32,000 nt of DNA. It comes from Synechococcus sp. C9. GTDB taxonomy: Bacteria; Cyanobacteriota; Cyanobacteriia; Gloeomargaritales; Gloeomargaritaceae. The DNA lies in contig NZ_JALAAD010000001.1 of NCBI RefSeq assembly GCF_022984075.1, positions 878,455 through 910,454 on the forward strand. Reading direction: 5' to 3'. Under the pieces are notes generated by a model, which did not search any database, was not told where the DNA came from, and saw only the letters and a program-made list of their open reading frames with translations. A program made the translations under genes and the position numbers. This document shows positions 14,479 to 32,000 of this stretch, piece by piece. Numbering within the stretch: the first letter of the stretch is position 1; each line of letters begins with the position of its first letter.

Positions 14479-14573
14479 AACATGGGTATGCCAACAGATG
14501 TTTGGTTGGCGCAAATCAATAGAGATACCCTTATGATAAGGATAATGCAGTTGTTTTAATTCTTATCCTAACG

Positions 14574-16604: not shown

Positions 16605-17750
16605 GTGAGGAGTCAATCCATGCGTTCTATTTACCGAGTCATTGCCCCGTTTGCCATTGCTGTACCCTTACTTGGGGCTGGCACCGTCACCGCAAATCCG
16701 GCTGGGAATAAATTGGCTGTGCCCTCACCTCCCCCAGCCACAACGAAACCCAACCCTGCCCCCGCCACAGCTAAGCCCACCCAAACGACGGTACAACCCA
16801 CCGCCAAACCCGCCAGTCCCTCCCCGGCGGCGGCCATCCCGAAGGTGGAAATGCCTGCCCCCACCCCCACAGCGGTCAATGTCCAACGGGTGCTGTATGT
16901 CAACCCCACCAGTGGCCAGGACACCCACAACGGGCAAACCGCCCAAACCGCCTTCCGCACCATCACCCAGGCTCTGAAATTCGCCGAAGGGGGCACCTTG
17001 ATCCAACTGGCTCCAGGGAAATACAGTGCCGAATCGGGGGAGCAATTTCCCCTGGCCCTGAAACCCGGCGTGATCCTGCGGGGGAACGAGTCCACCCGGG
17101 GAGAAGGAATTTTGATTGAAGGGGGCGGACGGTTTGTCAGCCGGATTTTTGCCCGCCAAAATGCCACCATCCTGGCCGGCGAAACCACCCACATCCTGGG
17201 GGTCACCGTCACCAACCGCAACATCCGGGGCACGGCCATCTGGGTCGAATCCACCAACCCCTACATCCGCAATTGCACCTTTACCAACAACCACCGGGAA
17301 GGGGTGTTTGTCACCGGGGAAGGGGCGCCCCGCATCGAAGATAACCTGTTTATCCGCAACGGCGGCAACGGGGTTTCCCTCACCAAGGCTTCCAAAGGGG
17401 AGGTGCGGCGGAATGTCTTTATCCAAACTGGCTTTGGGTTAGCCATCGGCGGCGTTGCTTCCCCCATCGTGGCGGACAATCGCATCGAAAATAACGTGGA
17501 TGGCATGGTGATCAGCGATGTGGCTCGACCCGTCCTGCGGGGGAACCGGATCGCCTTCAACCAGCGCACGGGGATTATCGTGATTTCCAATGCCCAGCCG
17601 GATTTGGGTACCCCTGCCAGCCCCGGCAACAATACCTTTCAAAGCAACGGCAATCATGACCTGCAGAACGCCACCAAAAACATCACCCTCACCAGCATTG
17701 GCAACCGCCTGGATGCCACCAAGGTGAACGGGCCAGTGCAATTGCAGTGA
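16605..17750 (+). CDS. secreted DUF1565 / right-handed parallel beta-helix repeat protein
   Basis: Signal peptide, then a Pro/Ala/Thr-rich linker, then YVNPTSGQDTHNGQTAQTAFRTITQALKFAEGGTLIQLAPGKY (DUF1565-type start). Repeated N-x-hydrophobic beta-helix rungs follow (IRNCTFTNN, IEDNLFIRNG, VRRNVFIQ, VADNRIENN, LRGNRIAFN). Confidence 0.8.
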   Translation: MRSQSMRSIYRVIAPFAIAVPLLGAGTVTANPAGNKLAVPSPPPATTKPNPAPATAKPTQTTVQPTAKPASPSPAAAIPKVEMPAPTPTAVNVQRVLYVNPTSGQDTHNGQTAQTAFRTITQALKFAEGGTLIQLAPGKYSAESGEQFPLALKPGVILRGNESTRGEGILIEGGGRFVSRIFARQNATILAGETTHILGVTVTNRNIRGTAIWVESTNPYIRNCTFTNNHREGVFVTGEGAPRIEDNLFIRNGGNGVSLTKASKGEVRRNVFIQTGFGLAIGGVASPIVADNRIENNVDGMVISDVARPVLRGNRIAFNQRTGIIVISNAQPDLGTPASPGNNTFQSNGNHDLQNATKNITLTSIGNRLDATKVNGPVQLQ

Positions 17751-17762
17751 AGTTAAGAAAAG

Positions 17763-18482
17763 TTAAGACCCTGACCTAGCTCGATAAAACAATTCCAAAC
17801 TGGCGGGGGTGCCCACAAACCGCCAATGCCAGGGTTCATAGCTAATCCCTTGGGGGTTGTTGCGGGGGAAGGACAACTCAAAGTGAAATTGCGCCGCCCG
17901 TTTCTGCAACCAAGCAAAAGCCGCCGTTTCCTCAAAGCTCTCGTGAATATGGGTGCCCGGTTGTTTCCCATCCCCCACATCCAGGGCATAACCCGTATGG
18001 TGTTCGCTGTAACCCGGCGGGGCACTGACCTTGGCGCGTTCCGCCACCTGTTGCCCCCGTTCTGCCTTCACCCCGTAAAACAATTCCTCCTGCTGTTGCC
18101 GGGAGCGAAACCCGGACAGGGGCACCAAAATCACCCCCTCCGCCCGGGCGGCAGACTGCATGGCGAGAAAGGCTTGAGCCGCATCCCGGTGCAATTGGAC
18201 CCGCCCATCCGCTGTGACCGCCTGCAAATCCTGGGCTGGGGCTTCAGGATACGGTAAATGTCCTAACAAATCCACAGATGTAATGGTCGGGGCAGGCTTG
18301 GGTTCAGAAGCTACAGGCGTTGAAGCGGGAGTAAGCCACCACCAAGCTACTCCAGTCACAGCCACCACCGGAATCCCCAGCCATGCCCACCGCCAGGGAG
18401 AAGGGACCAAGTGCGGACGGGGGGAGGATTGCCGCCGGGCTTCGGGAATCTCATCAATGGGATACAAACGCTCCTCCTGCAT
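17763..18482 (-). CDS. M15-family D-alanyl-D-alanine carboxypeptidase (VanY-like)
   Basis: N-terminal TM anchor, then SGFRSRQQQEELF and PPGYSEHHTGYALDVGD...EPWHWRF. These are the H-x6-D ... H zinc ligand motifs of VanY/M15B peptidases. Confidence 0.85.
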   Translation of the reverse strand: MQEERLYPIDEIPEARRQSSPRPHLVPSPWRWAWLGIPVVAVTGVAWWWLTPASTPVASEPKPAPTITSVDLLGHLPYPEAPAQDLQAVTADGRVQLHRDAAQAFLAMQSAARAEGVILVPLSGFRSRQQQEELFYGVKAERGQQVAERAKVSAPPGYSEHHTGYALDVGDGKQPGTHIHESFEETAAFAWLQKRAAQFHFELSFPRNNPQGISYEPWHWRFVGTPASLELFYRARSGS

Positions 18483-18511
18483 TCACAACGCCAATTGCAC
18501 CAAACATCAAC

Positions 18512-18633
18512 TATAGCAATCCTACTTGATTAGTGTTAGCTTGCGTGCCGTAGGCATACAGAGATTCCCCGGAACCAAGGACGGGGGCGGTGCCCCTGCG
18601 ACCCCTGTTCCATTCTCATTTAGGACTGCTATA
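18512..18633 (+). mobile_element. MITE-like element, complete copy with a ~30-nt internal insertion (122 bp)
   Basis: TATAGCAATCCTACTTGATTA-[gtgttagcttgcgtgccgtaggcatacagag]-ATTCCCCGGAACCAAGGACGGGGGCGGTGCCCCTGCGACCCCTGTTCCATTCTCATTTAGGACTGCTATA. The termini are inverted repeats with one mismatch. Confidence 0.75.
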
Positions 18634-18682
18634 TTTTTAATGGAAATTTATAGATATTTCAAGTATTTTCTATCGTTAATCC

Positions 18683-18781
18683 TATCGCAATCCCATGCAA
18701 TTCACGAACAGAAATTTGCCAAAACTAAGGACAGGGGGTACCCCTGCAACTTATGTTCTCAATTCAGTTAGGATCACCATA
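18683..18781 (+). mobile_element. MITE-like element, degenerate copy
   Basis: TATCGCAATCCCA ... aaaactaaggacagggggtacccctgcaacttatgttctcaattcagTTAGGATCACCATA. The tail matches the tgttctcaattca subfamily also seen at 9193-9292 and 13990-14023. Confidence 0.55.
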
Positions 18782-18811
18782 ATCTATCGGAAATGACCAC
18801 AACAACGCCCA

Positions 18812-20866
18812 TCAATTTATCCCCAGTGCCTTCATCGCCGCTGTCATTGGGTCGGAGAAGAATATAGGGTCAACCCGCTCGATGATCTCGCCCGATACTT
18901 CCAGAAAGTTTCGCTTGTTTTCGAGGGGAATAAGTGCCCGCCGTGCTCCGTTATCCATGCTGACCTGCAACGGCTCGGCTAATGAGCGAACAGCTTTGAT
19001 ATTTCCTTGAATGCTCAGGTCGCCGAGGATCACCAAACCAGGCAATACCGACTGCCGCTGGATAGCGGAATAGATGGCGACCACCAAGGCGATCCCAGAT
19101 TCACAAGGAACGTGGTTACTGAGTAAGTCAATCGCCTCGACATGAAAATCTGTTGTGTCGAATTGTTGAGCAATCCCCATCTTCACTTTTTGGCTTTGGA
19201 GATAGGCGAAGGCTCGTTGCAGGGATTCCTTCATCGCCCCTTCCACACCCCCTGCCACCTTCAGTTTGCCAGTGCCGGGTGAACAGCCCACTTCCAGACG
19301 ATAAAGACCCACTTTACCCTGGTCATCCACCGAGGCGGTATAAACCGATCCAGGGGCAAGGGGGTCAGCGGCAATCATATCCCGCCCCCCCTGTTCGGGT
19401 ACCCCGACAAACCGTTCTTCCCTGGTGGTGTTGTCAATAAAAGAGAACGAGGTTTGGTGGTACTCGAAGGAACCCATCTTTTTCAGCTGTTCCTTGACCC
19501 GGCGACGGCCTTCCAAGGCCAGTTCGGTAAGCTCAGCCAGTTCATCCCTGGACAACTCACCGTGGGGATAGACCAGCTTCACCAGCCCAGAAACCGACTT
19601 GCGGACAGCCTTCACATCACGGGCATTGAGATGGGAGCCAAGGGAGAAATGCCGGTCGAGCATCTCGGTGAAGTTATGCTTGCGCAGTATCCGCAGTGCC
19701 TCAGCCAAATAATCCACGACGAAGCCGTAGTGGTCGGTGAAAAATTCAACCCGCATCTTCGGGATTTCCCAGCCGGGAATGTAAAAGTGAATGCGATCCA
19801 GGAATGCCATGTCCTCACGGATCACGTCGGGCAGTGGCATGAATAAATGGGAGGAGCGCACCATGACCTCCACCGGCTGGTTGGTATTGCCGAACATGGC
19901 AATGGATGCCATACCAGACAGGGAATCCTTCCCCCGGGCAAAGGTGCCAGACTCACAGTAGGTTTTCAGGGTCGTTACCACCTCTTTCGGCATCTTTTGC
20001 AGGTCAGCCACCTCATCAAACGCCACCGCATCCCAAATCCCAACTAGCCCTATTTTGTTGGTAGCCATGTTGTAAAAAAGATTGGCTACGGTTGTCGGGC
20101 CGGTGAGCAAGATGGTGTAGGGTGAAAGCTCCTGATAGCCATAACTCTTACCTGTGCCACGGGGGCCAAGCTCCACCAGATTGTAATTCCGTTCGCAGAG
20201 GGGTACCAGTCGCACCAGAAGTAGCAATTTAACCCGTCGCTCAAAATGAGATGGCTCTATGCCAATGGTGCGGAGCAGTAGGTCAATCCACTCCTCGGTG
20301 GTAAATTCCCGGCGACAATCACAGTATTCTTCCAAGTCGAACTTAGCCAGTTGAATTGGCTTGAGGCTTTCGATCCAAAAAGGACTGCGTTTTCCTTTTT
20401 GTTCTTCATCGTACTGGTGCCGCAAATCTACTTGTGCCCAAATGCCGCCCATTAACAAACGGTCGTAGTCCCGCAGGAAGTGTTCGGGAATGTGAACGTA
20501 CCGATGCCCGAAGTTCTTTAATTCCGCCCAGTATTTGTCATCGTCGGAAACGTAGCGCACCTGCACCTTGTCAATGAGGGTGTGCTTCCCCTTGTCCTTT
20601 ACCAGCGACTGGGCTTTGTTGGCTTCCCCAGGGGTGACAAAATTCGAGGAGAGGGTATTGTTAACCACTTTCAGCCCCGCATCAATCGCCACAGGGTCAT
20701 CGGTAGCACAATACTTGCCTAACAGGTATTCGAGAACAAAGACTGGGACATTTGCTCCCACTTTCACCTTGCGAACCAAATCTTTGCGGACGACTTTACC
20801 CGCAAATACGGTTGCCGCTTTTCGATCCAGTTCAGACATGGTAGGTTCCTCAGATCGAAATGGCAA
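18812..20866 (-). CDS. brxL: BREX system Lon protease-like protein BrxL
   Basis: N-terminus MSELDRKAATVFAGKVVRKDLVRKVKVGANVPVFVLEYLLGKYCATDDP is characteristic of BrxL. A central AAA-like region (LVELGPRGTGKSY) and a C-terminal Lon-protease-like domain (GDLSIQGNIKAV) follow. It sits immediately downstream of pglZ. The likely true start is ATG at 20839, preceded by GAGGAA that overlaps the pglZ stop. Confidence 0.9.
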   Translation of the reverse strand: MPFRSEEPTMSELDRKAATVFAGKVVRKDLVRKVKVGANVPVFVLEYLLGKYCATDDPVAIDAGLKVVNNTLSSNFVTPGEANKAQSLVKDKGKHTLIDKVQVRYVSDDDKYWAELKNFGHRYVHIPEHFLRDYDRLLMGGIWAQVDLRHQYDEEQKGKRSPFWIESLKPIQLAKFDLEEYCDCRREFTTEEWIDLLLRTIGIEPSHFERRVKLLLLVRLVPLCERNYNLVELGPRGTGKSYGYQELSPYTILLTGPTTVANLFYNMATNKIGLVGIWDAVAFDEVADLQKMPKEVVTTLKTYCESGTFARGKDSLSGMASIAMFGNTNQPVEVMVRSSHLFMPLPDVIREDMAFLDRIHFYIPGWEIPKMRVEFFTDHYGFVVDYLAEALRILRKHNFTEMLDRHFSLGSHLNARDVKAVRKSVSGLVKLVYPHGELSRDELAELTELALEGRRRVKEQLKKMGSFEYHQTSFSFIDNTTREERFVGVPEQGGRDMIAADPLAPGSVYTASVDDQGKVGLYRLEVGCSPGTGKLKVAGGVEGAMKESLQRAFAYLQSQKVKMGIAQQFDTTDFHVEAIDLLSNHVPCESGIALVVAIYSAIQRQSVLPGLVILGDLSIQGNIKAVRSLAEPLQVSMDNGARRALIPLENKRNFLEVSGEIIERVDPIFFSDPMTAAMKALGIN

Positions 20867-23456
20867 CGGGGAGGGTCAGAGGCGGAGCTAGTTCTACCCC
20901 GGTAATGGCATCCAGCAGATATACCCGCACCGTCTGTTGGGAAATTTCCTCCGACAGCATTACGGTAACAGTATTTGGCTCGATGCGTCTGGGATCATGT
21001 TCAGCAAGTTTCAGCCTCACTTCGCCGGTGGCATCCTCAAATCCGTAAGAGGCACTCACTGGCTGGGAGACACACTTTTTATTAGCTCGCACTTCGATCC
21101 GCACCGTCGGTGGCTTCAATCCAAATAGGTCAATCTGCTCCTGGTTGCCGCTAATCTGTATGGAAAAAAACCGGGTGGTCAGTTTGGGGGTTCCTGGCGT
21201 TAGTGTCCACCGAATGCTGGTCGTTGTTGCTTTTGGTTGTGCCCTTGAGTGCATGACCAGTACAGGCACGATCAGCTCTTGGGGAGACAAGCCGCCGTGA
21301 AAATAAGCGCGACCACCCCCTTTCGATTTGAAAACGGCGAATGTCCAGGGGGTGGCAATGTCATATTCACTCTCTACGCCTAGGGAGGTCAGGGAGGTTC
21401 GCAGGTAAGTGGATTCCGAATTGCCGCCGATGCCCACCCACACTCGGCGATGCAGGTCTGCTACTTGTCCACCGGGGGCTTCAATTTTCATATCCTCCCC
21501 GACTTCATCGGCAAACAAGTGACCGTGATCCGCAACCAGCACGATGGTTTTAATGCCGTGATCCGCCAAGATGCGCACACCCCGGCGCAGATGCCCCAGC
21601 ACACCGTCAATTTGCAGTCGGGCTTGAGCGAGGTTGTCGGTCTCGCCCAGCTCATCAATTTCCTGGGATGTGATCAGGATTAGCTGGTGGTTCTGGATCC
21701 CGTCTTTGACCTTTTTGCTGGGCTTGGGGAGGAGGTCTTCGAGTTTGGCATCAAAGACTGCAACCCCTGCATGGTTCTTCAGGAACGCTACCCGGTCGTT
21801 GCGATTTCTCATGACCTGACCGGCGATCTCCACGCCCAGTTTGCCACCCCCAACCCCGACCACCTTGGCTGACTCGTGGGCTTTGGGGAGTAATGCCGCC
21901 ATGCCAATCTCGGTGATTGTGGGGATCATGGCGAGGGCGGGCTGACATGCGAGCGGGAAGTCGTTTGCCAAGAGGCGGGACAACTCACGCGCCATTTCAA
22001 ACCGCAGGGCATCCACCCAAACATAGGCAACCTTGCCTTCGCTCAAATGGGGCTTGACCTGTTTCTCAAAGATGTTTTGTTGCCGTAGTAAACCCTCGAT
22101 GGGATGCTTGGCTTTGGCAAATTGGGTGATGAAATGTTTGGCTAGTTCACTGCCGACCTGGGTGTACCGCTGTTCAGCCTTGGTGATCAGCTTTTCCAGT
22201 GCCTGATGATCGTCCCCAGGGGCAAACTCGAACTGATACTTGCGGCTTTCCAGGTGGCGGTGATGGGTGTCGAGTAGGCACCAAGGTTGGTCATCCTCGG
22301 CGTAGGCTTTGACGAGTTCGAGAACGGTGGTGGGGGCTTTTTTGAGTGCTTTTGCGACTCGGTCGGCTGAGAGTAAGACCTCGGCGGCGGATGCCACCAG
22401 TGCCCAGCGGGCTTGAATCTGTGACTCCACATCTGCCCAGAAGCGGGCGCGTCGTTGCTTGACTAGGTGAAGCCTTTCCGGGGTGACTTGCTTGAGAAGC
22501 TCTGTTTCGAGATGCACCAGCAAGGTTTTTTCGACGCACAGGAAGGTTTCATTCTCCTGGAGGGGATCCACGGGCAGGTCAAGCCGACTGAGACCAAGCT
22601 CCTGTTCGGTTCTGTTGGCGATGGTAATGTAACTGTCTCGATGTTCGCGGCTATTTCGCCATGAACGGGCAAGCCGGACACAGGCATCAACACCAGCCGG
22701 GCTGTGGGCAATGGCAACCGATGCTAATGGGGAAGGCACCTGTTCTTTGAGAGCGGCGCATAGGTCAGTGAGGAGAATGTGTCGCCCCAACTTGACTCGC
22801 CAGTGTGACAAGGTTTCAGCGGTAGGAAGCTGAATCTCGAAGCCCATTTCGAGCAGACGTTGGAGTTCGGTCTTCGCTCCTTTTTTGGCAATCTCCTGGT
22901 CATGCCGGTCATCGTGGAGAAAGGCTAAGGCGACTTCCTGGGGGGTGGCGGTGCCGAAGATCAGGGTGAGTACCCCAGTGGCAAGGTCTTTGCCTTTGTC
23001 GGCGAGGGCGTTGAGGTCTGCCAGGGACAATTTCCCCGCTTCCACTTGCCGCTCGATTTCACCCACTTGCTCCTCGCTCAAAATCGGCTTGAGGGCGTTG
23101 CGAGCCACGACAGATAAGCGGGTGTTGCAGGCGGGGGGTTGTTGCCGGGGTTGCATTACTACTCCGGCGGCATCCAGTTCGATCAGGGCGGCGTGGGTCT
23201 TTTCCCGTGGGAGGGGGACGTAAACGACCAAGCGAGGCGGTTGCCGGTCGTTCATGAGGTGGTCAATGTCTTTGCGCAATTGGAAGAAACTCCCCTCATA
23301 ACGAGCCACGGTGGTGTTGGGGAGGGTGAGTGTTTCTGCAATGGAGCCGTAGGCTTGCTCCGGGTCATACCAGACCACCAGCCCTTTGTCCTCGACCTGC
23401 TTGGCAATCAGTTGGGTCAGATAGGCGGTGACCACAGCCATACTCATCCCTACCAA
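20850..23456 (-). CDS. pglZ: BREX-1 alkaline-phosphatase-superfamily protein PglZ
   Basis: 868-aa ORF. N-terminus ...YLTQLIAKQVEDKGLVVWYDPEQAY is followed by a PglZ-domain region (YVWVDALRFEMARELS ... ITSQEIDELGE ... LVADHGHLF). It lies between pglX and brxL. The likely start is ATG 23447, 2 nt after the PIN1 TAG stop; the track start at 23456 is TTG. Confidence 0.9.
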   Translation of the reverse strand: MVGMSMAVVTAYLTQLIAKQVEDKGLVVWYDPEQAYGSIAETLTLPNTTVARYEGSFFQLRKDIDHLMNDRQPPRLVVYVPLPREKTHAALIELDAAGVVMQPRQQPPACNTRLSVVARNALKPILSEEQVGEIERQVEAGKLSLADLNALADKGKDLATGVLTLIFGTATPQEVALAFLHDDRHDQEIAKKGAKTELQRLLEMGFEIQLPTAETLSHWRVKLGRHILLTDLCAALKEQVPSPLASVAIAHSPAGVDACVRLARSWRNSREHRDSYITIANRTEQELGLSRLDLPVDPLQENETFLCVEKTLLVHLETELLKQVTPERLHLVKQRRARFWADVESQIQARWALVASAAEVLLSADRVAKALKKAPTTVLELVKAYAEDDQPWCLLDTHHRHLESRKYQFEFAPGDDHQALEKLITKAEQRYTQVGSELAKHFITQFAKAKHPIEGLLRQQNIFEKQVKPHLSEGKVAYVWVDALRFEMARELSRLLANDFPLACQPALAMIPTITEIGMAALLPKAHESAKVVGVGGGKLGVEIAGQVMRNRNDRVAFLKNHAGVAVFDAKLEDLLPKPSKKVKDGIQNHQLILITSQEIDELGETDNLAQARLQIDGVLGHLRRGVRILADHGIKTIVLVADHGHLFADEVGEDMKIEAPGGQVADLHRRVWVGIGGNSESTYLRTSLTSLGVESEYDIATPWTFAVFKSKGGGRAYFHGGLSPQELIVPVLVMHSRAQPKATTTSIRWTLTPGTPKLTTRFFSIQISGNQEQIDLFGLKPPTVRIEVRANKKCVSQPVSASYGFEDATGEVRLKLAEHDPRRIEPNTVTVMLSEEISQQTVRVYLLDAITGVELAPPLTLPVAISI

Positions 23457-23836
23457 TACCTCGTGATTTTGTAAGCGTCCAGTGCCGGGTCATTGCTAAT
23501 GATTGGAATTCCTTCGGTAAGTGCCTGGGCGACCAGCAAACGGTCGAAGGGGTCTTTGTGGTGAAAGGGCAACCCGATCACCCTCGCCGTGTGCATCGGA
23601 TCGATCGGAAGGATGATAAACCCGTATTTGTTCATACACGCTTCGATGAAGTCTTCATAGGGCTGATGTAGATTTAGCTTGCCAATGCTGACCTTAATGG
23701 CAATCTCCCAATACGTCGCTGGGCTGATGAAAATCTCGTTGGCTGGATCCAAAATCAATGCCCTAGCCGTCTCGCTGAGTTGCGGGTCGCCCAGCGTGTA
23801 CCAAAGGAGCGTGTGGGAATCGAGAAGGTGCCTCAC
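23450..23836 (-). CDS. PIN-domain toxin (VapC-like, type II TA) - cassette 1
   Basis: 128 aa. MRHLLDSHTLLW (first acidic PIN residue), WEIAIKVSIGKL and HHKDPFDRLLVAQAL..IPIISND match the PIN nuclease family that pairs with Phd/YefM-type antitoxins. The start overlaps the antitoxin stop by 4 nt (ATGA). Confidence 0.85.
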   Translation of the reverse strand: MRHLLDSHTLLWYTLGDPQLSETARALILDPANEIFISPATYWEIAIKVSIGKLNLHQPYEDFIEACMNKYGFIILPIDPMHTARVIGLPFHHKDPFDRLLVAQALTEGIPIISNDPALDAYKITRYW

Positions 23837-24069
23837 GGCATATACTCCGCAAAGTCCTTGAGATGCTCATCATCGTCCGCCACGATGGTGATCATGCCCT
23901 TGCACAGCCCAGGTGGTGGGCGCAGACCAGCTATCGGTTTCGGCGATTCGCTCACCAGCTTCGCCACGGGTCGATCGTTCTCTGTGATCACCAATTCTTC
24001 ACCGGGATTTAGCCGATGAATAAGATCGGGCAGTTGGGCTTGGGCTTCTTGGATGGTGACGGTTGTCAT
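23833..24069 (-). CDS. Phd/YefM-type antitoxin - cassette 1
   Basis: MTTVTIQEAQAQLPDLIHRLNPGEELVITENDRPVAKLV is the Phd/YefM-like N-terminal fold signature. The acidic C-terminus is ...DDDEHLKDFAEYMP. I prefer the ATG at 24069 (AAGAG upstream) to the track start at 24141, which would run through the pglX-remnant stop region. Confidence 0.8.
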   Translation of the reverse strand: MTTVTIQEAQAQLPDLIHRLNPGEELVITENDRPVAKLVSESPKPIAGLRPPPGLCKGMITIVADDDEHLKDFAEYMP

Positions 24070-24218
24070 AATTGGGTGCGCTCTTATAGTCATTATTTTA
24101 CCAACCCCTTTTCCCGTAACTGTTTGCCAATGGATGACCACTCGTATTTGCCCGCCAGGAGTTCTTCCCAGTATTTTTTGGCATCCTTCCAGGGGACGAG
24201 TTCCCAGAGGGGGGCGAT
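23987..24218. repeat. direct repeat copy 1 (antitoxin 5' end + leader + pglX 3' end), partner at 24825-25054
   Basis: By-eye alignment with 24825-25054: about 3 mismatches in 65 nt over the antitoxin 5' codons and about 10 in 120 nt over the pglX C-terminal codons. A more divergent ~45-nt centre lies around the antitoxin start. Confidence 0.85.
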
Positions 24219-24284
24219 ATTCAAGACAACAGATCTTAGTTTTTCTGTGTCAGAGATTCGGTGACCACAGCCATTGGTAAACAC
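24093..24284 (-). pseudogene. duplicated remnant of the pglX 3' end (last ~42 codons)
   Basis: The ORF ends ...IAPLWELVPWKDAKKYWEELLAGKYEWSSIGKQLREKGLVK. The genuine PglX C-terminus is ...IAPLWELVPWKEAKKYWEELLAGKYEWSSISKQLREKGLVK. The upstream 21 codons are unrelated. The remnant is contiguous and in frame with PIN2, separated only by PIN2's TGA. Confidence 0.85.
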
Positions 24285-24674
24285 TCAGCTCCAGATTCGG
24301 TTAACACCATAGGGATCGAAGATGTGATCGGCACTGACCAGCGGGATGTCTTCGACGAGTGCCTGAGCCGCCAGCAGGCGGTCGAACGGATCCCGATGAT
24401 GGAACAGCAACCTGGTCTGCCGCTCGGCGTGGTCGAGGGTGATTGGTAGCACTGTCAAGACAAGGTCGGCGATTGCCTTGTCCATCCACGGGCGGTAGGG
24501 CATGGATAACGGAAGGGTGCCTTTGCCGAACTTAATGGCGATTTCCCAGATGGTCGCCGCACTGAGGAGGCGTTCCATATCAGGGTTCGCTATGATTGCC
24601 ATCGCTCCTGGCGGAATCTGTGAGGGATCCTCCGCCGCCCAGATCAAGGTATGGGTGTCAAGGAGCAACCGCAT
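24285..24674 (-). CDS. PIN-domain toxin (VapC-like, type II TA) - cassette 2
   Basis: 129 aa. MRLLLDTHTLIW, WEIAIKFGKGTL and HHRDPFDRLLAAQALVEDIPLVSAD match the same family as PIN1, but identity is only ~40% by eye. The start overlaps the antitoxin stop (TAATG). Confidence 0.85.
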   Translation of the reverse strand: MRLLLDTHTLIWAAEDPSQIPPGAMAIIANPDMERLLSAATIWEIAIKFGKGTLPLSMPYRPWMDKAIADLVLTVLPITLDHAERQTRLLFHHRDPFDRLLAAQALVEDIPLVSADHIFDPYGVNRIWS

Positions 24675-24907
24675 TATGTATACTCCTCGAACTCCTCAAG
24701 GGGGTCGTCGAAGTGCTCCATCGAAAGGACGGTTCCCTTCAAGGTGCCGAATTTTGGGGCTTTTCGAGCCTCGGCGGTTGAGGCGGTAGGTACCAATCGA
24801 GCCACCGGCTGGTTGTTTTCAGTAATCACCAACTCTTCACCGGGATTTAGCTGATGAATAAGATCGGGCAGTTGGGCTTGAGCTTCTTGAATCGTAATGC
24901 TCGCCAT
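24674..24907 (-). CDS. Phd/YefM-type antitoxin - cassette 2
   Basis: MASITIQEAQAQLPDLIHQLNPGEELVITENNQPVARLV is nearly identical to antitoxin 1 over ~35 aa. The C-terminus diverges (...MEHFDDPLEEFEEYT). AAGGAG lies 7 nt upstream of the ATG, and the ATG lies 21 nt after the pglX stop. Confidence 0.85.
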   Translation of the reverse strand: MASITIQEAQAQLPDLIHQLNPGEELVITENNQPVARLVPTASTAEARKAPKFGTLKGTVLSMEHFDDPLEEFEEYT

Positions 24908-25054
24908 GTTGAGTGCTCCTTATTATTGTCATTTTACCAACCCCTTTTCCCGTAATTGTTTGCTGATGGATGACCACTCGTATTTGCCCGCTAATAGTTC
25001 CTCCCAGTATTTTTTGGCTTCTTTCCAGGGGACGAGTTCCCAGAGGGGGGCAAT
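24825..25054. repeat. direct repeat copy 2 (antitoxin 5' end + leader + pglX 3' end), partner at 23987-24218
   Basis: See copy 1. The offset between copies is 838 bp. Confidence 0.85.
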
Positions 25055-28000
25055 GGTTAGTGCTACGCCGTCGTTGATGTCCGGGTCGAGGTGCAAATTG
25101 GCTGCTCGCCGTAACCGTTCTTCCAAGTCCCGCAGATCGGACAACAATTCTTCCTGTTTCTCGATTGCTTTGGCGAGGCGTTTGGCTTCTTTGCCGCTGG
25201 TGCCCGCTGTGTTTTTCTGGGTGCGGAGGGAATCGAGCAAGCTGGTTTGTAGGCGAATTTCTGGCTCGACGGCGTTGAGCAATACTTTGAACAGGGTGTC
25301 CCGGTCGTATTGCCGGGCGTGTAGCCAGACGGCGAAATTTTTCTTGGGGGATTGCAACAGCCAGTAGATGGGTCGCTTGCGGTATTGTTGCAGGTGCCGC
25401 TTGAAAAAAGGTTCTCCCAGGTCGTTGGCGAGTCGTTCGCTCAGATTCCCTGAACCGCAGGCGGTGGCGGTGGTCACTACCTCGGTAGCGGCGGTTTCTC
25501 CCAAGCGGGTTTCCAACTGATTGAGTACCTGCTCAGCCAGTTTGTGCCGTGACCAGAAGGCTCCCTGTGCAAAGACTTTCATCACGGCAAAGCTAATCCA
25601 GGCGTGCGCCAACCCTGTGCGGTCTGTGGGAATGCTGATGGACTCTTCCTCGTTTTCTAAGGACTCCGTCCCGCTAACGCGAACGGTGGGGGGGTCGTCG
25701 TCTTCGGTTGCGGGTGGGCTTTCGGCTAATTCGGTTTCAATGGCGGCACGGTCTTGGTCGCTAATGCCGTAGAGCCGATAGACTTCTTCGTCAATCTGCC
25801 GTTCGATCTCGGCGAGTTGGGTGTGGCGTTGGGCAACCTGTTCCAGTCCATCCGACCAGGGGGGCGGGGCGACAAAATCCCAGGTGGTCTCATCTTCGGC
25901 ACTGTCCTGTTTGGCAAGGGCAATGGCTTGCTCGACCAGGGCTTCTAGTTCGGGGCTGGATTGATCGGGAATGGGTAATCGTTCCAGGTCGCCGACTTGT
26001 GTATTTACGGTCGGGTTAATGAGCCACAGTAGATATTGGAATACAGAAGAATTCAGTACAGCAAGCAATTGCATTGGATTTTGTGGGAATAGACCTGATG
26101 TTGCGTCTGCAAAAATAAACCCTTCAGGGGATAATCTCGCTGTAAATCTTCCACTCGTTACTTTAGGACACGTCACGCCGCGGCGGAAGTAGTAGTCGGG
26201 GTTCTTAGCGACCCATTCCCATTTGCCATCCAAATACGGATAACGCTCACAAATCCAGTTTTTGATCTCCGCACCATCATTTTCCCAGTTGACGACATAT
26301 TCCTGGTTGCCATACCAGCGTTGGAACGAGCCGCCCTTCATATAGGGGAACCAGCGTTTTTGGGTCTGCCGGGCTTCTTCGGCGTTTTGGCAACCAAAAG
26401 CGATGTGGGATGCGCCAACTTCCCACCAGTAACGCAGGAAACGGAAATTATCGGCAGTGGCTAAACCTTGCCGGGGTTGTGCTACATCTCCCAGTTTCGG
26501 CAGGGTCTGGAAGAGGCGGCGCAGTCCGGGTGGGATCCAATACACCCAGGGGCTACCGGGGATGGCGGCAAAGTCTTTTTGGGCATAGCGGCAGATGATC
26601 GGGTCGGTGTCGAGGTGGCACAGTGCTTGCTCAAACCGTCGGCGTTTGCTCTCGGCATCGGGTTCCTTCACCAACCGGAAATAGGTGCCAATACTCTCCT
26701 GTCGCCGCTGGGCGTTGGGTTCCTTGCGAAGGACAATCAGCGTCGTATTCACCTTCTCACCGGAGACTTCATCGAAAGCACGGGGACCAACGTGACCGAT
26801 TACTTCATTCACGGATTGTTCACCAAGCCAATTACGCAACTTCTCGTAACTGGAGATGAACATGAACGATTGCTGTGTGATCATACCGAGTCGTCCGCTG
26901 TTTCTGAGCAAGTCAATCCCCCGGAGAATAAAAGCCGCATAGAGATCACCCTTTCCCGTCGGGTACAACTTAGCAATGGCTTCTCTCATAACCGGATTCA
27001 TGTTTCGTGCCGTCATATACGGCGGATTCGTCACGACCACATCGTAGGTTTGACCTAGCAATTCCAGCAGTCTCAACCCCTGCACGGTCTCCTGAGCAAA
27101 ATAGGTCTGGTTGTATCCCCGCTCCGTTTCGGCTTTGGCAAAGGCATCGAGGGCTTGGCTGACTTGCTCTTCGAGGGTTTCCCAAAATTTCCCCTGGCTT
27201 GCTTCGCTCTCAAATTGTGCCTGGCTCCAGCCAAAAATGTCCGGTTGTCGCCCTTCTTTCTCGTAACGCTGACGCTCCACCTCGATCAACTGACGGATGC
27301 GCTTTTCCAGGGGCAATAGCGAGCCAAGATGTTCGGAGAGTTGGAGTTCCTCTTGCAAGGCTTGGAGAATCCGACCGTAAATGGGGCGTTGGTTCAAGCC
27401 AGCCGACTGGAGAAAAGCCCCCAACCGTTCCCCATTGAGCATATGCACATTGGCACAGGCTAAGCGTGATTGGCTGAGCGACCGCCGGGGTGCCAGCACC
27501 TTCGCCTTCAGGTACAACGCCAAGGCACTGATCTGGACGGCACGGGGATCAATGTCAATGCCATGTAGGTTGTGGGCGAGAATTGCGGCAGGGATTTCCT
27601 CCAGGGAAGCGACGGGGGGCGTTTCACGCCAACCGGGTTGACCGGCTCGCTCGCATTCCTCCCGATACATTTCCACAAAGAGATCAAAGGCGACCAAGCC
27701 AAAGTGCATGGTTCCGCAAGCCGGATCGAGCAGGCGAATGGAACGGATAGTGCGGACTGGACTACTTCTGGGTGCAACCTGGCGTGGGATGTAGTAGTGC
27801 AATTGCTCGGCAAGGGGGGAGTCAGGGTGCATCTCCAGCCAAAGCGTCCCCAGGGTGTTGTGAACAAGAAAGCGAACCATCCAATAAGGCGTGAAAATCT
27901 GCGTGGCGGCTGGGATGTCGTGAGGGGTGACTTTTTGCTTTTTCTTGTACAACTTCTCAAACACTTCGTCTTTTTCAGCTTCGACAAAAAACTGATACAC

Positions 28001-28627
28001 CCAACCCAATGTTTCCTCACTGCCCGGTTGCCATGCCTCGGCGAGGTCGGGGGTGTTGAGCGTTTCGGCAAGTTGCTTGAGAGCAGTGGCAGGGGGAGCG
28101 AGTCGGGTAGCCAGATTATCGGGGTCAAACAACACCCGGATTTCCGCCGCTAATTCCCCACAACGTGCCAACAGGAAGCGATGATAGGCGGCACTGCGAT
28201 ACTCCCCACCCCGCTCGTAATCTGCCAGATCAGCCTCCCGTCCAGTCTGCGTGACCCAGTGCTTGAAGCCATTGGAGTCTTCCCAACGTCCGATGGTTTC
28301 CCGGATCAGCTTGCGAGTCTCCAGCATTTTGAACGCAACGAAGCGGTTCAGCCAAGTAAAGGCGACTTCCCGCACCAGTTGCCGGTAAGCATCCACTTTG
28401 CTGATTCCCTGGGACTCAAGCAAATCAAAATGTTCCAACACCTGCAACCGCACGGATCGCTCTTCCTCGCTCAAGTGCGCCACCGAAGCCGTCCGATCTG
28501 CTATCAATGAGTTTCCTTTGAGAAAAATGGTGAACCGCCCTTCCAGCCGTTGCGCCACCGCCTCTTCCAACCACCGGCGGGATTGGGTGACGACGTTGCG
28601 GAGCTTGTTGCGAATTTCTGGGTGCAT
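24929..28627 (-). CDS. pglX: BREX-1 adenine-specific DNA methyltransferase PglX
   Basis: 1232-aa ORF. The N-terminal helical region is MHPEIRNKLRNVVTQSRRWLEEAV. It has LDPACGTMHF (SAM-binding motif I-like) and VVVTNPPYMTARN (the NPPY catalytic motif of N6-adenine methyltransferases). Its size and its position between brxC and pglZ fit PglX. Confidence 0.9.
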   Translation of the reverse strand: MHPEIRNKLRNVVTQSRRWLEEAVAQRLEGRFTIFLKGNSLIADRTASVAHLSEEERSVRLQVLEHFDLLESQGISKVDAYRQLVREVAFTWLNRFVAFKMLETRKLIRETIGRWEDSNGFKHWVTQTGREADLADYERGGEYRSAAYHRFLLARCGELAAEIRVLFDPDNLATRLAPPATALKQLAETLNTPDLAEAWQPGSEETLGWVYQFFVEAEKDEVFEKLYKKKQKVTPHDIPAATQIFTPYWMVRFLVHNTLGTLWLEMHPDSPLAEQLHYYIPRQVAPRSSPVRTIRSIRLLDPACGTMHFGLVAFDLFVEMYREECERAGQPGWRETPPVASLEEIPAAILAHNLHGIDIDPRAVQISALALYLKAKVLAPRRSLSQSRLACANVHMLNGERLGAFLQSAGLNQRPIYGRILQALQEELQLSEHLGSLLPLEKRIRQLIEVERQRYEKEGRQPDIFGWSQAQFESEASQGKFWETLEEQVSQALDAFAKAETERGYNQTYFAQETVQGLRLLELLGQTYDVVVTNPPYMTARNMNPVMREAIAKLYPTGKGDLYAAFILRGIDLLRNSGRLGMITQQSFMFISSYEKLRNWLGEQSVNEVIGHVGPRAFDEVSGEKVNTTLIVLRKEPNAQRRQESIGTYFRLVKEPDAESKRRRFEQALCHLDTDPIICRYAQKDFAAIPGSPWVYWIPPGLRRLFQTLPKLGDVAQPRQGLATADNFRFLRYWWEVGASHIAFGCQNAEEARQTQKRWFPYMKGGSFQRWYGNQEYVVNWENDGAEIKNWICERYPYLDGKWEWVAKNPDYYFRRGVTCPKVTSGRFTARLSPEGFIFADATSGLFPQNPMQLLAVLNSSVFQYLLWLINPTVNTQVGDLERLPIPDQSSPELEALVEQAIALAKQDSAEDETTWDFVAPPPWSDGLEQVAQRHTQLAEIERQIDEEVYRLYGISDQDRAAIETELAESPPATEDDDPPTVRVSGTESLENEEESISIPTDRTGLAHAWISFAVMKVFAQGAFWSRHKLAEQVLNQLETRLGETAATEVVTTATACGSGNLSERLANDLGEPFFKRHLQQYRKRPIYWLLQSPKKNFAVWLHARQYDRDTLFKVLLNAVEPEIRLQTSLLDSLRTQKNTAGTSGKEAKRLAKAIEKQEELLSDLRDLEERLRRAANLHLDPDINDGVALTIAPLWELVPWKEAKKYWEELLAGKYEWSSISKQLREKGLVK

Positions 28628-28631
28628 GGGG

Positions 28632-28805
28632 CTACCAAAGTCTGTTCAATCCGTAACAATCGAACGTCCCATCAGCGGATACAAGGCACAGTCCCTCGAC
28701 CAGGGCGGTTGCGGCAATGAGACGGTCGAACGGATCACGGTGGTATAGCGGCATTGTCGAGAGGGGTTCGATATGAGCCGATTCTAGCGGTAATAAATGG
28801 ATGTC
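28632..28805 (-). pseudogene. PIN-domain toxin remnant (C-terminal ~57 codons only) - cassette 3
   Basis: Hand translation of the frame ending at TAG 28632-28634: ...IHLLPLESAHIEPLSTMPLYHRDPFDRLIAATALVEGLCLVSADGTFDCYGLNRLW*. This aligns with the C-terminal halves of PIN1 and PIN2 (LPI...HHRDPFDRLL.AQAL.E..PLVSAD...YG..R.W). The N-terminal ~70 codons, including the MR.LLD.H motif, are missing. The only in-frame ATG (28754) leaves 40 aa. Confidence 0.7.
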
Positions 28806-29068
28806 TTCTCTAAATAATCCCGCATATCTTCAAGAGGTTCCTTGAAGTCGTCGGGTACAGTGAACTGCCCCTCATAACGACCTGCTTTGGGAATGCCCGT
28901 GACCGGGGGGCGTGGTCGTGGTGGACTGGCTTGCACAAGCGACCAAGGAATGATCTGGGCAACCGGACGCTCATTCTCGGTGATGGTCACCACTTCATCC
29001 GGCGCAAGACAGTGGATCAATTCAGCGAGGGTGTTCTGAGCTTCGTTGAGTGAAACAGTTTTTGCCAT
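28784..29068 (-). CDS. Phd/YefM-type antitoxin - cassette 3 (orphan, extended C-terminus)
   Basis: MAKTVSLNEAQNTLAELIHCLAPDEVVTITENERPVAQIIP is the same fold signature as antitoxins 1 and 2. The C-terminus ...DDFKEPLEDMRDY matches the ...PLEEFEEY ending of antitoxin 2, then runs on 9 extra codons (LEKTSIYYR) into former toxin sequence. GGAG lies 8 nt upstream of ATG 29068; the track start at 29089 is TTG. Confidence 0.75.
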   Translation of the reverse strand: MAKTVSLNEAQNTLAELIHCLAPDEVVTITENERPVAQIIPWSLVQASPPRPRPPVTGIPKAGRYEGQFTVPDDFKEPLEDMRDYLEKTSIYYR

Positions 29069-29092
29069 CTGCTTTCTCCAACTTTGCAAAAT

Positions 29093-32000
29093 TTACTCCA
29101 AAATAACAATCGCTCCTTCATCAATACACTTCTGAAGGGAATCCCGAATCCGGTCAAGTACCTGGTCGAGTTCCGCCTGCGTCTGAATGGGACGACTGAA
29201 AAATTCTGATACTTTTATCTTTCGCACCGGGGCTTTCTTCTCTCTACCGATGGAGAGTTCCTGCAACTTGACCAGCACCGACGATTTCAACCCCTCCACA
29301 GCCGCAAGGTCGGATTCCATTTCTGTGAGGCTGGATGTGCCCAGGGATTGCCCTTCTGTCACAGCCTGTTTGTCCTCTTCCGTGCCCACGCGACTCTGCA
29401 AGGGGGACAACAGGGATTGAGCCAGACTGGGGTTCGCGGCTGCCACAGGTGCCCACTCAGGACGGTTTTGAATTTCGTCAATGGCTGACTCGTAAGCCTG
29501 TTTGCGACGGTCGAAAAGCTCACAGTAGGCGGTTTGGTACGCCTCCAGCACCTGTTTGGTGTAGGCAACAATGTTGTCCCACGCATCGAGAAACTGCTCT
29601 GAAACGAGCAGGGCTTTGAGTTCTTCAACCCTAGTGTGAAGTTCGGGGGAGGGGGCATGAGCCGACAGCCGTTGCCACACTTGCTCGGTTGCCTGACGGG
29701 CTTGCCGGAGAATGGCGATAGCCTCCTGGTTCAGGAACTCCCGCAGTTTACGCACCTTGTCCCGTGTTGCTCCGAACTCTCTGCCGCTCTCGGTCAGAAT
29801 GCGAACGCAATCATCAGAAGCGGAGGACTGAATCCCCATCAAGGTTTGCTGGTACTCCGAAAGCATGGGCAACACCGGCAGGCGATGGGCTTCGGCAAGG
29901 GCTTTGAGGGGATAGAGCTTTGCCAGTTCCTCGGCGGCAACTTTCTGAAAGGCGGTGGCAATGGCTCCTTCCTCCACATCCACCTCTTCCCCGGTCAGGT
30001 TCTCCAGTTGCTGTACAGCTTGGGTAAGGGTTTTGAGACCAACCGATTGGCGGGGCGAGAACAGCGACGAGCGAAATGCTGAAATGTTGGTAAATGGGGT
30101 GCGGGAAGCGGGGTCTTGGTAGTTGTGAAAACGGTTGCTTTGATAAGTAACTTCAATCTCGCCCGCCCGGAATAGGGTAGCCAGAATCAGCCGTAGCATA
30201 TCCCGTTCCCAGCCGTAGGGCGTGCCGCTGAAACGTTTTTCCAGTGCCTTGCCCATGCAGGTGTCTCTGTTGCCATAACTGAATTCGCTCTTGAGGTAGT
30301 CCAGCACTTCTTTGGCAACGGGGGCGGTGGTGCAGATGATATTTTTCGCACCGTCCTTGACGACCAGCCCTAACCCTTGCTCCCCGGCGTAGAAGACGTT
30401 GGGCAGGGCTTTCAGGTCGGCGGCTTTGAGAATCTGCTCAGCTTCATCCCCTTTAAGCGGACGAGAACCCATTGGCAACTTGGGGTAGAGGTCAGGCACC
30501 ACTTGCCCGAAGAGCTTTTTGAGGATTTCGCCCAAACTTTTTCCCAAGGCAGAAGCATCCTTCTGCACACCCCGGAACATACCCGTGCCACTCTCTAAGG
30601 CTTCGGTGAGCTTGTCCCGCAGGCGAATTTCATAGCCGTTTTTTAAGTTTTTCTCGTCTTGCAGGCAGGTGGCTTCGTCGGGGCTGATTTTTTGTTGGGC
30701 ACTCAACTGGTTGTATTTGTCCACCATTTTGCAGGAAGCATAAAGTTGATGGACAAGTTCATCAATCTCTGGAGTCAGGCAGAAGAGCCAATACAAATCA
30801 TTTTCGTGGGATTTTTGCTGGCTTTCGGTGCGGATTTCCTCAAGGCGTTGGGTGAGTTCATCGGCATCGTCCGAAACACATAAAGTCAGGGGCAATTCCC
30901 CTTCATCTCCAATGCTGGTGCCGTCAACATTAATGCCGATACGAAACGAGCGATTTTGATAGCGGAAGGTCTTGAACTCCGGATCATTAAAGAGCTGCTG
31001 CAGGGCAGTACGGATAAGTTCCCTTTCTTCACGGGGCTTGGGATCGAGATACCCGCTGCGTTCGTTGGTCCAGCTCTTTTCTTGAGCAGTCTGGAGCTTC
31101 CAGCCTTCCTCAGTGTTGCGAATGAATTTGGCGGACTCCAGTCGCTTCACGGCGGCTTGCACTTCCTTGAGGGGGGCAGCCTTACCAACTTCATCCACGA
31201 GCATGGCGGCAATGTTGACTTCAGTGCGGGGCAGGTCACGAATGAACTCCAGGAGACAGATGACTTTAGCGACCTGCAAAGCCCAGCCCTGATCGTCGGG
31301 ATCGGTCTTGAATCGCTCCGAGATTTCGTAAATGTCCGTACGTTTCTCGTTGGAAAGATTGCCCTCCACCAACTCGAACACCTTGTCGAGGGTCACCAAT
31401 GCCCCAATCGGCTTGTTGGCAAAAGCGGTGCGCTCGGACACGAGCATCTCGTAGGCTTGTTTGATGATTGTGCGGTTACTGCCGCCGTAATGCCGGGGGG
31501 CGCCAGGTTGCAACCGGATACCTGACATGATGCCGATGCACAGGTCAATGTAGTGGGGGGGATAGGGATAGAATTGCACGAAATCCGCCTCGGTAATCTC
31601 CGTGCGGTGGGTGGGGCGTTCCAAACGCAGAGCGGCGTTTAGTTGTCCTTCGTTTTTCTTGAACAAATCCCGTAGGAGTGCTTCAGCTTCGGGCTGCTTC
31701 GCCAGGACACGCTTGGTGGCGACTTCCCGAATGTCGGACGGGGCAAGGTCAACCCGGTAACGGAACCGGTCTTGGAGTTTGGCTAACTCTACCCTTTTAG
31801 AGTCAATGGCGGCGACTACTTCATCGAGCTTTTCCTGGGATGTGACCACAATCCAGCAGGGAGCAATGATCTTTCTCGCCTTGAGCAAGTTTTTGCCAAC
31901 CTTGCCAAACTCCTCAATGGTCGCCCGCAGGTCTTCAATTTTGTCACCGCTCCGAGCCACGTGCTGACCCACTTCGTCAATGATAAATACAAGTGCTTTC
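29093..32000 (-). CDS. brxC: BREX system P-loop ATPase BrxC/PglY (partial; N-terminus beyond the right window edge)
   Basis: The reading frame stays open upstream of the track's GTG at 31972, right to the window edge: KALVFIIDEVGQHVARSGDKIEDL..., where FIIDEV is Walker B-like. More than 960 aa are in the window, and the gene sits directly upstream of pglX as in type 1 BREX. The helical repeat-rich C-terminal two-thirds is typical of BrxC. Confidence 0.85.
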   Translation of the reverse strand, partial: KALVFIIDEVGQHVARSGDKIEDLRATIEEFGKVGKNLLKARKIIAPCWIVVTSQEKLDEVVAAIDSKRVELAKLQDRFRYRVDLAPSDIREVATKRVLAKQPEAEALLRDLFKKNEGQLNAALRLERPTHRTEITEADFVQFYPYPPHYIDLCIGIMSGIRLQPGAPRHYGGSNRTIIKQAYEMLVSERTAFANKPIGALVTLDKVFELVEGNLSNEKRTDIYEISERFKTDPDDQGWALQVAKVICLLEFIRDLPRTEVNIAAMLVDEVGKAAPLKEVQAAVKRLESAKFIRNTEEGWKLQTAQEKSWTNERSGYLDPKPREERELIRTALQQLFNDPEFKTFRYQNRSFRIGINVDGTSIGDEGELPLTLCVSDDADELTQRLEEIRTESQQKSHENDLYWLFCLTPEIDELVHQLYASCKMVDKYNQLSAQQKISPDEATCLQDEKNLKNGYEIRLRDKLTEALESGTGMFRGVQKDASALGKSLGEILKKLFGQVVPDLYPKLPMGSRPLKGDEAEQILKAADLKALPNVFYAGEQGLGLVVKDGAKNIICTTAPVAKEVLDYLKSEFSYGNRDTCMGKALEKRFSGTPYGWERDMLRLILATLFRAGEIEVTYQSNRFHNYQDPASRTPFTNISAFRSSLFSPRQSVGLKTLTQAVQQLENLTGEEVDVEEGAIATAFQKVAAEELAKLYPLKALAEAHRLPVLPMLSEYQQTLMGIQSSASDDCVRILTESGREFGATRDKVRKLREFLNQEAIAILRQARQATEQVWQRLSAHAPSPELHTRVEELKALLVSEQFLDAWDNIVAYTKQVLEAYQTAYCELFDRRKQAYESAIDEIQNRPEWAPVAAANPSLAQSLLSPLQSRVGTEEDKQAVTEGQSLGTSSLTEMESDLAAVEGLKSSVLVKLQELSIGREKKAPVRKIKVSEFFSRPIQTQAELDQVLDRIRDSLQKCIDEGAIVILE

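Follow-up and report, generated by a model that had tools for sequence, protein, structure and literature searches.

We describe a chromosomal bacteriophage exclusion (BREX) operon of type 1 in the cyanobacterium Synechococcus sp. C9, in which the junctions on both sides of the methyltransferase gene pglX are occupied by toxin-antitoxin (TA) cassettes, each built from a Phd-type antitoxin gene followed by a gene for a VapC-like PIN ribonuclease (RNase). The operon lies on the minus strand of a stretch of 32,000 nucleotides (contig NZ_JALAAD010000001.1, positions 878,455 to 910,454), referred to below as the window and numbered from its first letter. In the textbook order of type 1 BREX, nothing stands between the core genes. 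The gene identities and the operon architecture reported here are secure. As to the role of the cassettes, we give about even chances to the reading that this operon represents a horizontally mobile subfamily of type 1 BREX, the pglX-flanking slots of which hold Phd-VapC cassettes that provide a backup to the system.

Slot 1 (between brxC and pglX), where relatives usually carry a HEPN RNase gene, holds antitoxin AT3 and a toxin, PIN3, inactivated by a 210-nt deletion, and slot 2 (between pglX and pglZ) holds two intact cassettes, AT2-PIN2 and AT1-PIN1, with a scar of pglZ 5' and pglX 3' sequence between them. In the proposed backup, each labile antitoxin would neutralise the PIN RNase of its own cassette; once host expression is shut off by infection or by countermeasures against BREX, unbound PIN would cleave RNA and arrest the cell, resulting in an abortive-infection-type backup to BREX and, incidentally, in a penalty on loss of the locus. 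Most likely, the cassettes would act as a type II TA layer expressed along with BREX and able to halt the cell upon a collapse of host expression, with stabilisation of the locus as a side effect. An abortive-infection role is plausible, but any defensive role is much less certain than the identity of the genes and their arrangement.

Gene identities and operon layout

All open reading frames (ORFs) listed in an earlier note on this DNA are present at the minus-strand coordinates given there, and its assignment of the operon to type 1 BREX is borne out by profile models of BrxC, PglX, PglZ and BrxL, all of which match, and by the gene order brxC-pglX-pglZ-brxL, which is that of BREX type 1. 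The window contains the 3' 969 codons of brxC (29093..32000; PADLOC BrxC 465 bits, NCBIfam NF033441 447 bits at a cut-off of 400), the 5' end of which lies beyond it. The product of pglX (24929..28627), a BREX-1 adenine methyltransferase and specificity subunit in which an NPPY motif was found, scores 844 bits with the NCBIfam model BREX_1_MTaseX (NF033452, cut-off 500), and the NCBIfam models for BREX-5 and BREX-6 score it under their cut-offs. For pglZ (PF08665 65 bits, PADLOC PglZ 366 bits) the noted ORF 20850..23447 exists, but its true start is probably the ATG at 23441, as in relatives and in the 863-aa NCBI model; the product is 100% identical to the PglZ protein recorded for Synechococcus sp. 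C9, which belongs to the Gloeomargaritales. The last gene, brxL (18812..20839), encodes a Lon-like AAA+ protein for which profile searches returned the domains BrxL_N, BrxL_ATPase and Lon_C (PF13337, PF20442 and PF05362; PADLOC BrxL 951 bits), and 65 nt past its stop codon a consensus scan indicates a terminator-like hairpin with a T-rich tail (18731..18747) as candidate end of the operon.

A role of BrxL as a Lon-type protease degrading the antitoxins was considered and set aside as unlikely, an assessment that relies on the published BrxL of Acinetobacter: BrxL forms an AAA+ ring that binds DNA, and the C-terminal domain of the Acinetobacter protein is devoid of the catalytic motif of Lon (PMC10164562).

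The inserted genes are Phd-type antitoxin/PIN (VapC-like) type II TA cassettes, as had been proposed. AT1 (23833..24069) and AT2 (24674..24907) encode proteins of 77-78 aa with a Phd/YefM N-terminus, which passes the PhdYeFM model PF02604 (35.9 and 33.4 bits, respectively, cut-off 29.8; AT2 additionally TIGR01552), and a VapB/DUF2281-like C-terminus. Their partners PIN1 (23450..23836, GTG start) and PIN2 (24285..24674) are intact VapC-like toxins that pass PF01850 with 52 and 39.6 bits (cut-off 23.6), and an alignment with relatives shows no variation at D6, E44, D98 and D116, the four acidic residues by which PIN nucleases are defined. In slot 1, AT3 (28784..29068), now an orphan, combines a Phd-like N-terminus with a VapB/DUF2281-like C-terminus; with 19.7 bits it remains below the Pfam cut-off of 29.8 and its NCBIfam matches are weak as well, and its assignment is backed by its homology to AT1 and AT2. 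The PIN3 gene is a remnant (28632..28805) consisting of the C-terminal 57 codons only, without a start codon, and covers only positions 68-115 of the Pfam PIN profile; it does not show the four acidic residues, since the N-terminal 70 codons are deleted and the catalytic D6 and E44 with them. Profile hidden Markov models thus supported every PIN, Phd and BREX call that had been made, with the exception that AT3 rests on homology. NCBIfam yielded no matches for the PINs or for the HEPN protein of related loci discussed below, and a sequence search of the PDB with PIN2 returned no matches.

Junctions and expression signals

The whole array is packed in a single orientation with gaps of 0-24 nt at all junctions. 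The brxC stop lies 24 nt before the AT3 start, the TAG of the PIN3 remnant 4 nt before the pglX ATG, the pglX stop 21 nt before the AT2 start, the scar stop 23 nt before the AT1 start and the pglZ stop 10 nt before the brxL start. AT2 and PIN2 overlap in TAATG; for AT1 and PIN1, the overlap had been read as ATGA, but the 4 nt in question are GTGA, the start codon of PIN1 being GTG. The PIN1 TAG precedes the ATG at 23447 by 2 nt, so that pglZ starts 2-8 nt past PIN1, depending on which start codon is used. The view that these junctions leave no room for separate promoters or terminators agrees with the spacers of only 21-24 nt upstream of the antitoxins and with a consensus scan, not modelled on cyanobacterial promoters, which detected no promoter-like or terminator-like sites on the minus strand within 23400-29100. 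This result is compatible with co-transcription of the cassettes rather than a demonstration of it; given their orientation and the 0-24 nt gaps, the TA cassettes are most likely transcribed together with the BREX genes. At the level of translation, AT2 is preceded by AAGGAG 8 nt upstream of its start and AT3 by GGAG 7 nt upstream of its ATG. As these antitoxins carry their own Shine-Dalgarno (SD)-like sequences, they are not obviously translationally coupled to the BREX gene upstream.

The best promoter-like match of the scan lies on the opposite strand, at 24063-24090 (+), where it runs antisense to the beginning of AT1 and to the scar (TTGTCA-16-TATAGT, 10/12), and is probably due to chance.

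A scar of pglZ and pglX sequence between two cassettes

Between PIN2 and AT1, the stretch 24093-24284 had been described as a pglX 3' remnant. This holds for about 24093 to 24231, which comprises the last ~46 codons of pglX and its stop, as recognised by nucleotide identity to the resident pglX 3' end (89% between 24083-24218 and 24919-25054); the segment 24246-24274 is, however, an out-of-frame 5' fragment of pglZ. The sequence 3' of the PIN2 stop, ATGGCTGTGGTCACC..., matches the true pglZ start (23413-23441) with 86% identity, and this pglZ-like scar reads as an ATG and 11 further codons to a TAA (24235..24273), after which it joins the pglX 3' end. A unit of ~837 nt is present in two head-to-tail copies, each running from the last ~136 nt of pglX through a spacer, an antitoxin gene and a PIN gene into the first ~30 nt of pglZ. 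The pglX remnant of the scar is also kept in another genome, that of Gloeomargaritales cyanobacterium VI4D9 (locus L019).

Divergence along this unit is strongly uneven. Next to the 89% nucleotide identity of the pglX 3' ends, the 5' parts of the antitoxin genes are 83% identical, with AT1 and AT2 sharing 82% of their N-terminal 39 aa and 26% of their C-terminal halves, and PIN1 and PIN2 share 45% of their amino acids. PIN2 has more in common with a PIN that occupies the same BREX junction in a locus of the planctomycete family Gemmataceae (L018; 70% identity) than with PIN1. From the scar, the conserved flanks, the diverged cores and the proximity of PIN2 to L018 we infer recombination between diverged BREX alleles. 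A diverged allele would have donated the segment pglX_B-AT2-PIN2-pglZ_B', joined before the resident pglX_A'-AT1-PIN1-pglZ_A, and this recombination event would have stacked two cassettes and replaced pglX in one go. The two cassettes might instead stem from simple in situ tandem duplication by unequal crossing-over followed by divergence, with no second BREX allele involved. Such an origin would fit the head-to-tail repeat from pglX 3' to pglZ 5' sequence, and the tandem arrangement is older than the split between C9 and VI4D9; yet the uneven divergence and the fact that PIN2 is nearer to L018 than to PIN1 speak against it, and we hold it to be quite unlikely. A recent duplication of this simple kind is likewise disfavoured by the unevenness along the unit. 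A similar stack was found in a metagenome locus (L073), where the 3' end of pglX is followed by Phd, PIN, pglZ fragments, an OLD-like ATPase with a 213-aa partner and finally pglZ.

Toxin decay and selection in the sister genome

VI4D9 shares the architecture of C9, scar included, and the two genomes differ in the state of their toxins. Compared with VI4D9, in which PIN3 is intact, C9 has undergone a clean deletion of 210 nt by which both the stop codon of AT3 and codons 1-70 of PIN3 were lost, and the 7-aa foreign tail of AT3 in C9 is the product of this deletion. Conversely, PIN2 is intact in C9 and interrupted in VI4D9 (L019 8779-9168) by a stop at codon 12 (W12*). Each genome hence retains two of the three toxins and all three antitoxins. 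In C9, pglX lacks an obvious SD-like sequence (28627-28635) and begins directly behind the stop of the PIN3 remnant. Since the deletion took the start codon of the remnant, any translational coupling into pglX may differ between C9 and VI4D9.

The ratio of nonsynonymous to synonymous divergence (dN/dS) between the two genomes is low for the intact TA genes (AT1 0.19, PIN1 0.13, AT2 0.16 and PIN2 0.17) as well as for the core genes (BrxL 0.07, BrxC 0.10, PglZ 0.15 and PglX 0.30). Together with the excess of synonymous changes in AT1, PIN1, AT2 and PIN2 (p = 3.6e-5 to 5e-3), this points to maintenance of the intact TA pairs by purifying selection. Synonymous divergence itself, which amounts to 0.26-0.41 in the flanking core genes, is much lower for some of the cassettes (dS 0.07 for AT3, 0 for the PIN3 remnant and 0.08 for PIN2; p = 1.6e-8 and 2e-7). 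This suggests that the lineages of C9 and VI4D9 have recently exchanged or converted cassettes. BrxC of C9 and VI4D9 is 94% identical. For PglX the identity is 82%, and a stretch of ~260 nt around 26735-26997 is left unaligned by blastn.

Over its residues 1-87, AT3 is 100% identical to the VI4D9 antitoxin (dN = 0), and it is kept without a functional toxin in C9. This would be expected if the antitoxins served mainly to control transcription of the BREX operon, as Phd-type DNA-binding proteins recruited for adjusting the expression of pglX or pglZ-brxL, with the toxins being secondary, and the shared DNA-binding N-terminus of AT1 and AT2, combined with unrelated C-termini, is compatible with a common operator. 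On the other hand, no operator-like repeat or promoter was found upstream of the antitoxins, orphan antitoxins are the expected leftover of ordinary TA decay, and the low divergence of AT3 is accounted for by recent exchange, as its dS is low too; a mainly regulatory role seems to us improbable.

Accessory slots in related BREX loci

To place these junctions in context, the core genes were mapped onto 33 genome loci encoding relatives of PglZ, most of them 63-93% and four of them 39-50% identical to PglZ of C9, from Planctomycetota, Acidobacteriota, Proteobacteria, Chloroflexota and other taxa. The pglX-pglZ junction could be counted in 30 loci and the brxC-pglX junction in 23. This survey, which the earlier note had called for, revealed genes between brxC and pglX in 19 of 23 and between pglX and pglZ in 11 of 30 loci, the main inserted ORFs at both junctions all lying on the operon strand. 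In the remaining 19 of the 30 loci pglX and pglZ abut, mostly through a TAATG overlap of stop and start. The notion that nothing separates the core genes therefore fails for real loci, in line with Went et al. (2024), in whose survey about 7000 of roughly 9000 genomes had one or more genes inserted between pglX and pglZ; most of these inserts are not recognised defence systems, and among the recognised ones BrxU accounts for 16% and PARIS for 2.2% (PMC11341690).

The content of the pglX-pglZ slot is diverse: GmrSD in L006, an AAA_21/OLD-like ATPase with a partner in L015, MNT-HEPN with an uncharacterised gene in L016, AbiEi/AbiEii in L026, TumE with two Phd genes and a PIN in L004, Phd-PIN in L018 and in VI4D9, a nucleotidyltransferase with an uncharacterised gene in L034, and uncharacterised proteins in L002 and L012. 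The brxC-pglX slot is far more uniform. In 17 of 23 loci it is taken by the gene, intact or frameshifted, for a RiboL-PSP-HEPN protein of 273 aa, which is highly conserved, carries an RRNDIVH motif (Rx4H) and is encoded within 6 nt and 1 nt of its neighbours; L004 has a 23S-rRNA-IVP four-helix protein in this position and four loci are empty. Phd-PIN at this junction was found only in C9 and VI4D9. As relatives hold HEPN there, the Gloeomargaritales have swapped one RNase gene for another in slot 1.

Sequence conservation around the slots is high in most loci and lower in a few distant ones, with identities of 75-86% for BrxC, 63-81% for PglZ and 84-91% for BrxL, and 46-47% for BrxC of two Anaerolineae loci. 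PglX is hypervariable over residues 1 to ~1000 (~28-33% identity to most relatives) and conserved in its last ~160 residues (1074-1232; 59-69% in most loci, lower in a few distant ones). The slots thus flank a hypervariable specificity gene in otherwise conserved surroundings, and the pattern of PglX variability suggests allele replacement of the specificity module. A more far-reaching interpretation would be that the pglX-flanking junctions are dedicated slots for interchangeable RNase effectors (HEPN, PIN, MNT-HEPN) wired to BREX. The cassettes would then rely on read-through from the operon and on tight coupling, so that silencing or blocking of BREX by a phage would deplete the antitoxins and free PIN, with recombination of diverged BREX alleles at the conserved pglX 3' and pglZ 5' arms both swapping methylation specificity and stacking toxins. 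In this strong form we consider it unlikely.

Several further features of these slots were recorded. In this BREX-1 subfamily, the RiboL-PSP-HEPN gene, found at L003 5024-5845 and equivalently placed in 16 further loci, behaves as if it were a seventh core gene. A two-gene cassette is common to L073 (1129-3749) and L015 (8015-9945) and consists of an OLD-like AAA_21 ATPase of ~445-486 aa and a ~200-aa partner for which no Pfam match was found; in L073 it sits behind Phd-PIN, with pglZ fragments between the two. At the crowded pglX-pglZ junction of Thiocystis (L004 7950-9951), genes for a 91-aa protein and a toxin of the TumE family are followed by an orphan gene for a Phd-like antitoxin and then by a Phd-PIN pair. 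In a metagenome-assembled genome of the Gammaproteobacteria (L032 8669-9710), a Phd-like antitoxin gene is situated just upstream of pglZ and an N-terminal PIN fragment ~600 nt further up, which looks like another case of TA decay in the slot.

Distribution of the PIN family and the passenger alternative

A metagenome scan with the PIN alignment was evaluated for its best 80 relatives, which are 37-61% identical; in ~64 of these 80 loci the same type of antitoxin gene lies directly upstream. Flanks were considered adequate when at least 900 nt upstream and at least 600 nt downstream of PIN were available, as was the case for 40 of the 80 loci. Only two of these 40 (L073 and L084) are embedded in BREX, both between pglX and pglZ. 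L084 is a distant BREX-1 locus with a PglZ of 25% identity and the same tight packing, its junctions consisting of an ATGA overlap and of a PIN stop overlapping the pglZ GTG. In a neighbour-joining tree, embedded PINs fall into at least four clades, mixed with non-embedded ones. A BREX-dedicated PIN clade, which had been considered, was rejected on these grounds. Such rare and polyphyletic embedding indicates that capture of Phd-PIN into BREX is sporadic, yet recurs at the same junction.

Both this low frequency and the scattering over clades weigh against a backup function of the cassettes, and they are not the only points to do so. The PINs are members of a generic Phd-VapC family that is not specific to BREX; the reciprocal decay of PIN3 in C9 and PIN2 in VI4D9 implies that no single toxin is indispensable; and none of the PADLOC defence models matches the TA proteins. 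With regard to co-expression, the promoter scan found 9 sites against 6.6 expected from shuffled sequences, hence no enrichment and a result that is uninformative for cyanobacteria, and a promoter could still lie inside the conserved pglX 3' end.

These observations sustain what we rank as the main rival, namely that the cassettes are selfish or neutral mobile Phd-VapC addiction modules residing in permissive, recombination-prone BREX junctions. They would persist by post-segregational killing or by hitch-hiking with pglX allele exchange, and would at most stabilise the locus without contributing to phage defence. The generic nature of the family, its polyphyletic embedding and the reciprocal toxin decay keep this possibility close: the PINs are widespread outside BREX with the same antitoxin partner, the two sister genomes lost different toxins and kept their antitoxins, which is the classic order of decay in chromosomal TA systems, and the dS of AT3/PIN3 and PIN2, far under that of the core genes, speaks for recent lateral exchange of the cassettes. 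What it explains less readily is that the same slots in relatives hold recognised defence modules (GmrSD, an OLD-like ATPase, AbiE and HEPN), that the cassettes are always oriented with the operon and their tight junctions preserved, that the intact pairs are under purifying selection, and that in slot 1 an RNase has replaced an RNase. Taking both sides together, a passenger role is a real but tentative possibility, and a backup layer within a mobile BREX subfamily is the reading that we favour.

Genomic surroundings and significance

The 18.8 kb beyond brxL (1-18800) consist of ordinary housekeeping genes, namely dxr, htpG, metK, hemF and genes for a HemN-like radical SAM protein, a CDF transporter, a GH57 protein, a DUF1565 protein and VanY. 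One tRNA-Ser(GGA) gene lies at 14163-14247, and no integrase or other mobile-element gene was found on this brxL side (1-18800).

Should the cassettes prove active and be triggered by a block of BREX, the operon would be a compact natural case of layered immunity, in which epigenetic exclusion is backed by RNase toxins. In that case, the replacement of HEPN by PIN in slot 1 would favour the view that a function, and not a particular gene, is under selection in this slot. Moreover, the scar and the reciprocal toxin decay make up a readable record of two processes, the stacking and loss of cassettes inside a defence operon and the exchange of pglX specificity alleles along with them. As the general phenomenon has already been published, the value of this locus lies in a well-resolved case and in C9 and VI4D9 as a testable pair, and not in a new class of system.

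Comparison with known systems

Embedding of accessory genes in BREX is well documented. Payne et al. (2024) described 'guilt-by-embedding', a systematic embedding in BREX in which embedded genes share the orientation of their host in 96.7% of cases, suggesting co-regulation (10.1101/2024.01.29.577857). The C9 cassettes are embedded in this sense, as they lie between core genes, in the same orientation, at positions that recur in related loci. According to a 2026 survey in NAR, BREX core loci contain RNases of the HEPN type, which is common, of the Schlafen type and, more rarely, of the PIN type, for which it uses the term 'backup suicidal effectors'; TA-like MNT-HEPN pairs were noted as well, and the only pairing specified for PIN was that with OLD-ABC ATPases (PMC12839542). 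Phd/VapB-type antitoxin partners are not mentioned in its text or in the supplements searched, which held nothing relevant for Phd, VapC or Gloeomargarita, and nowhere in the literature searched are Phd-VapC cassettes within BREX explicitly described. The suggestion that the arrangement is undescribed accordingly agrees with this search for Phd-PIN cassettes specifically, but fails for embedding in general, which is common and published.

With the backup RNases of that survey, the C9 operon shares an RNase gene inside the operon, flanked by core genes, and the related loci reproduce the published pattern with HEPN between brxC and pglX and MNT-HEPN between pglX and pglZ; unlike the surveyed PINs with their OLD-ABC ATPases, the PINs of C9 are paired with Phd/VapB-type antitoxins. 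A comparable nesting of an RNase in a restriction-like system is known from the PrrC anticodon nuclease of the EcoprrI type I restriction-modification locus, which has been proposed to act once its host system is put out of action. PrrC is kept inactive by the restriction-modification proteins, whereas the C9 PINs have a dedicated antitoxin and nothing ties their control to BREX proteins.

With VapBC and Phd-PIN type II TA systems in general, the cassettes share a small upstream antitoxin gene overlapping that of a ~128-aa PIN toxin with four conserved acidic residues, and an antitoxin with a domain for DNA binding at its N-terminus and a tail for toxin binding at its C-terminus. In contrast to free-standing VapBC, they are wedged in a larger operon, which leaves no obvious room for a promoter and operator of their own. 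Comparable embedded genes are BrxU/GmrSD of the BREX locus on Escherichia fergusonii pEFER and the PARIS genes ariAB of the Salmonella D23580 BREX locus, which likewise are inserts in operon orientation, often between pglX and pglZ, and for which a complementary or backup layer has been proposed; GmrSD occupies this same slot in L006. What sets C9 apart from these is that its inserts are canonical two-gene Phd-VapC cassettes, that three of them are distributed over two junctions, and that they come with recombination scars and with one toxin gene in decay.

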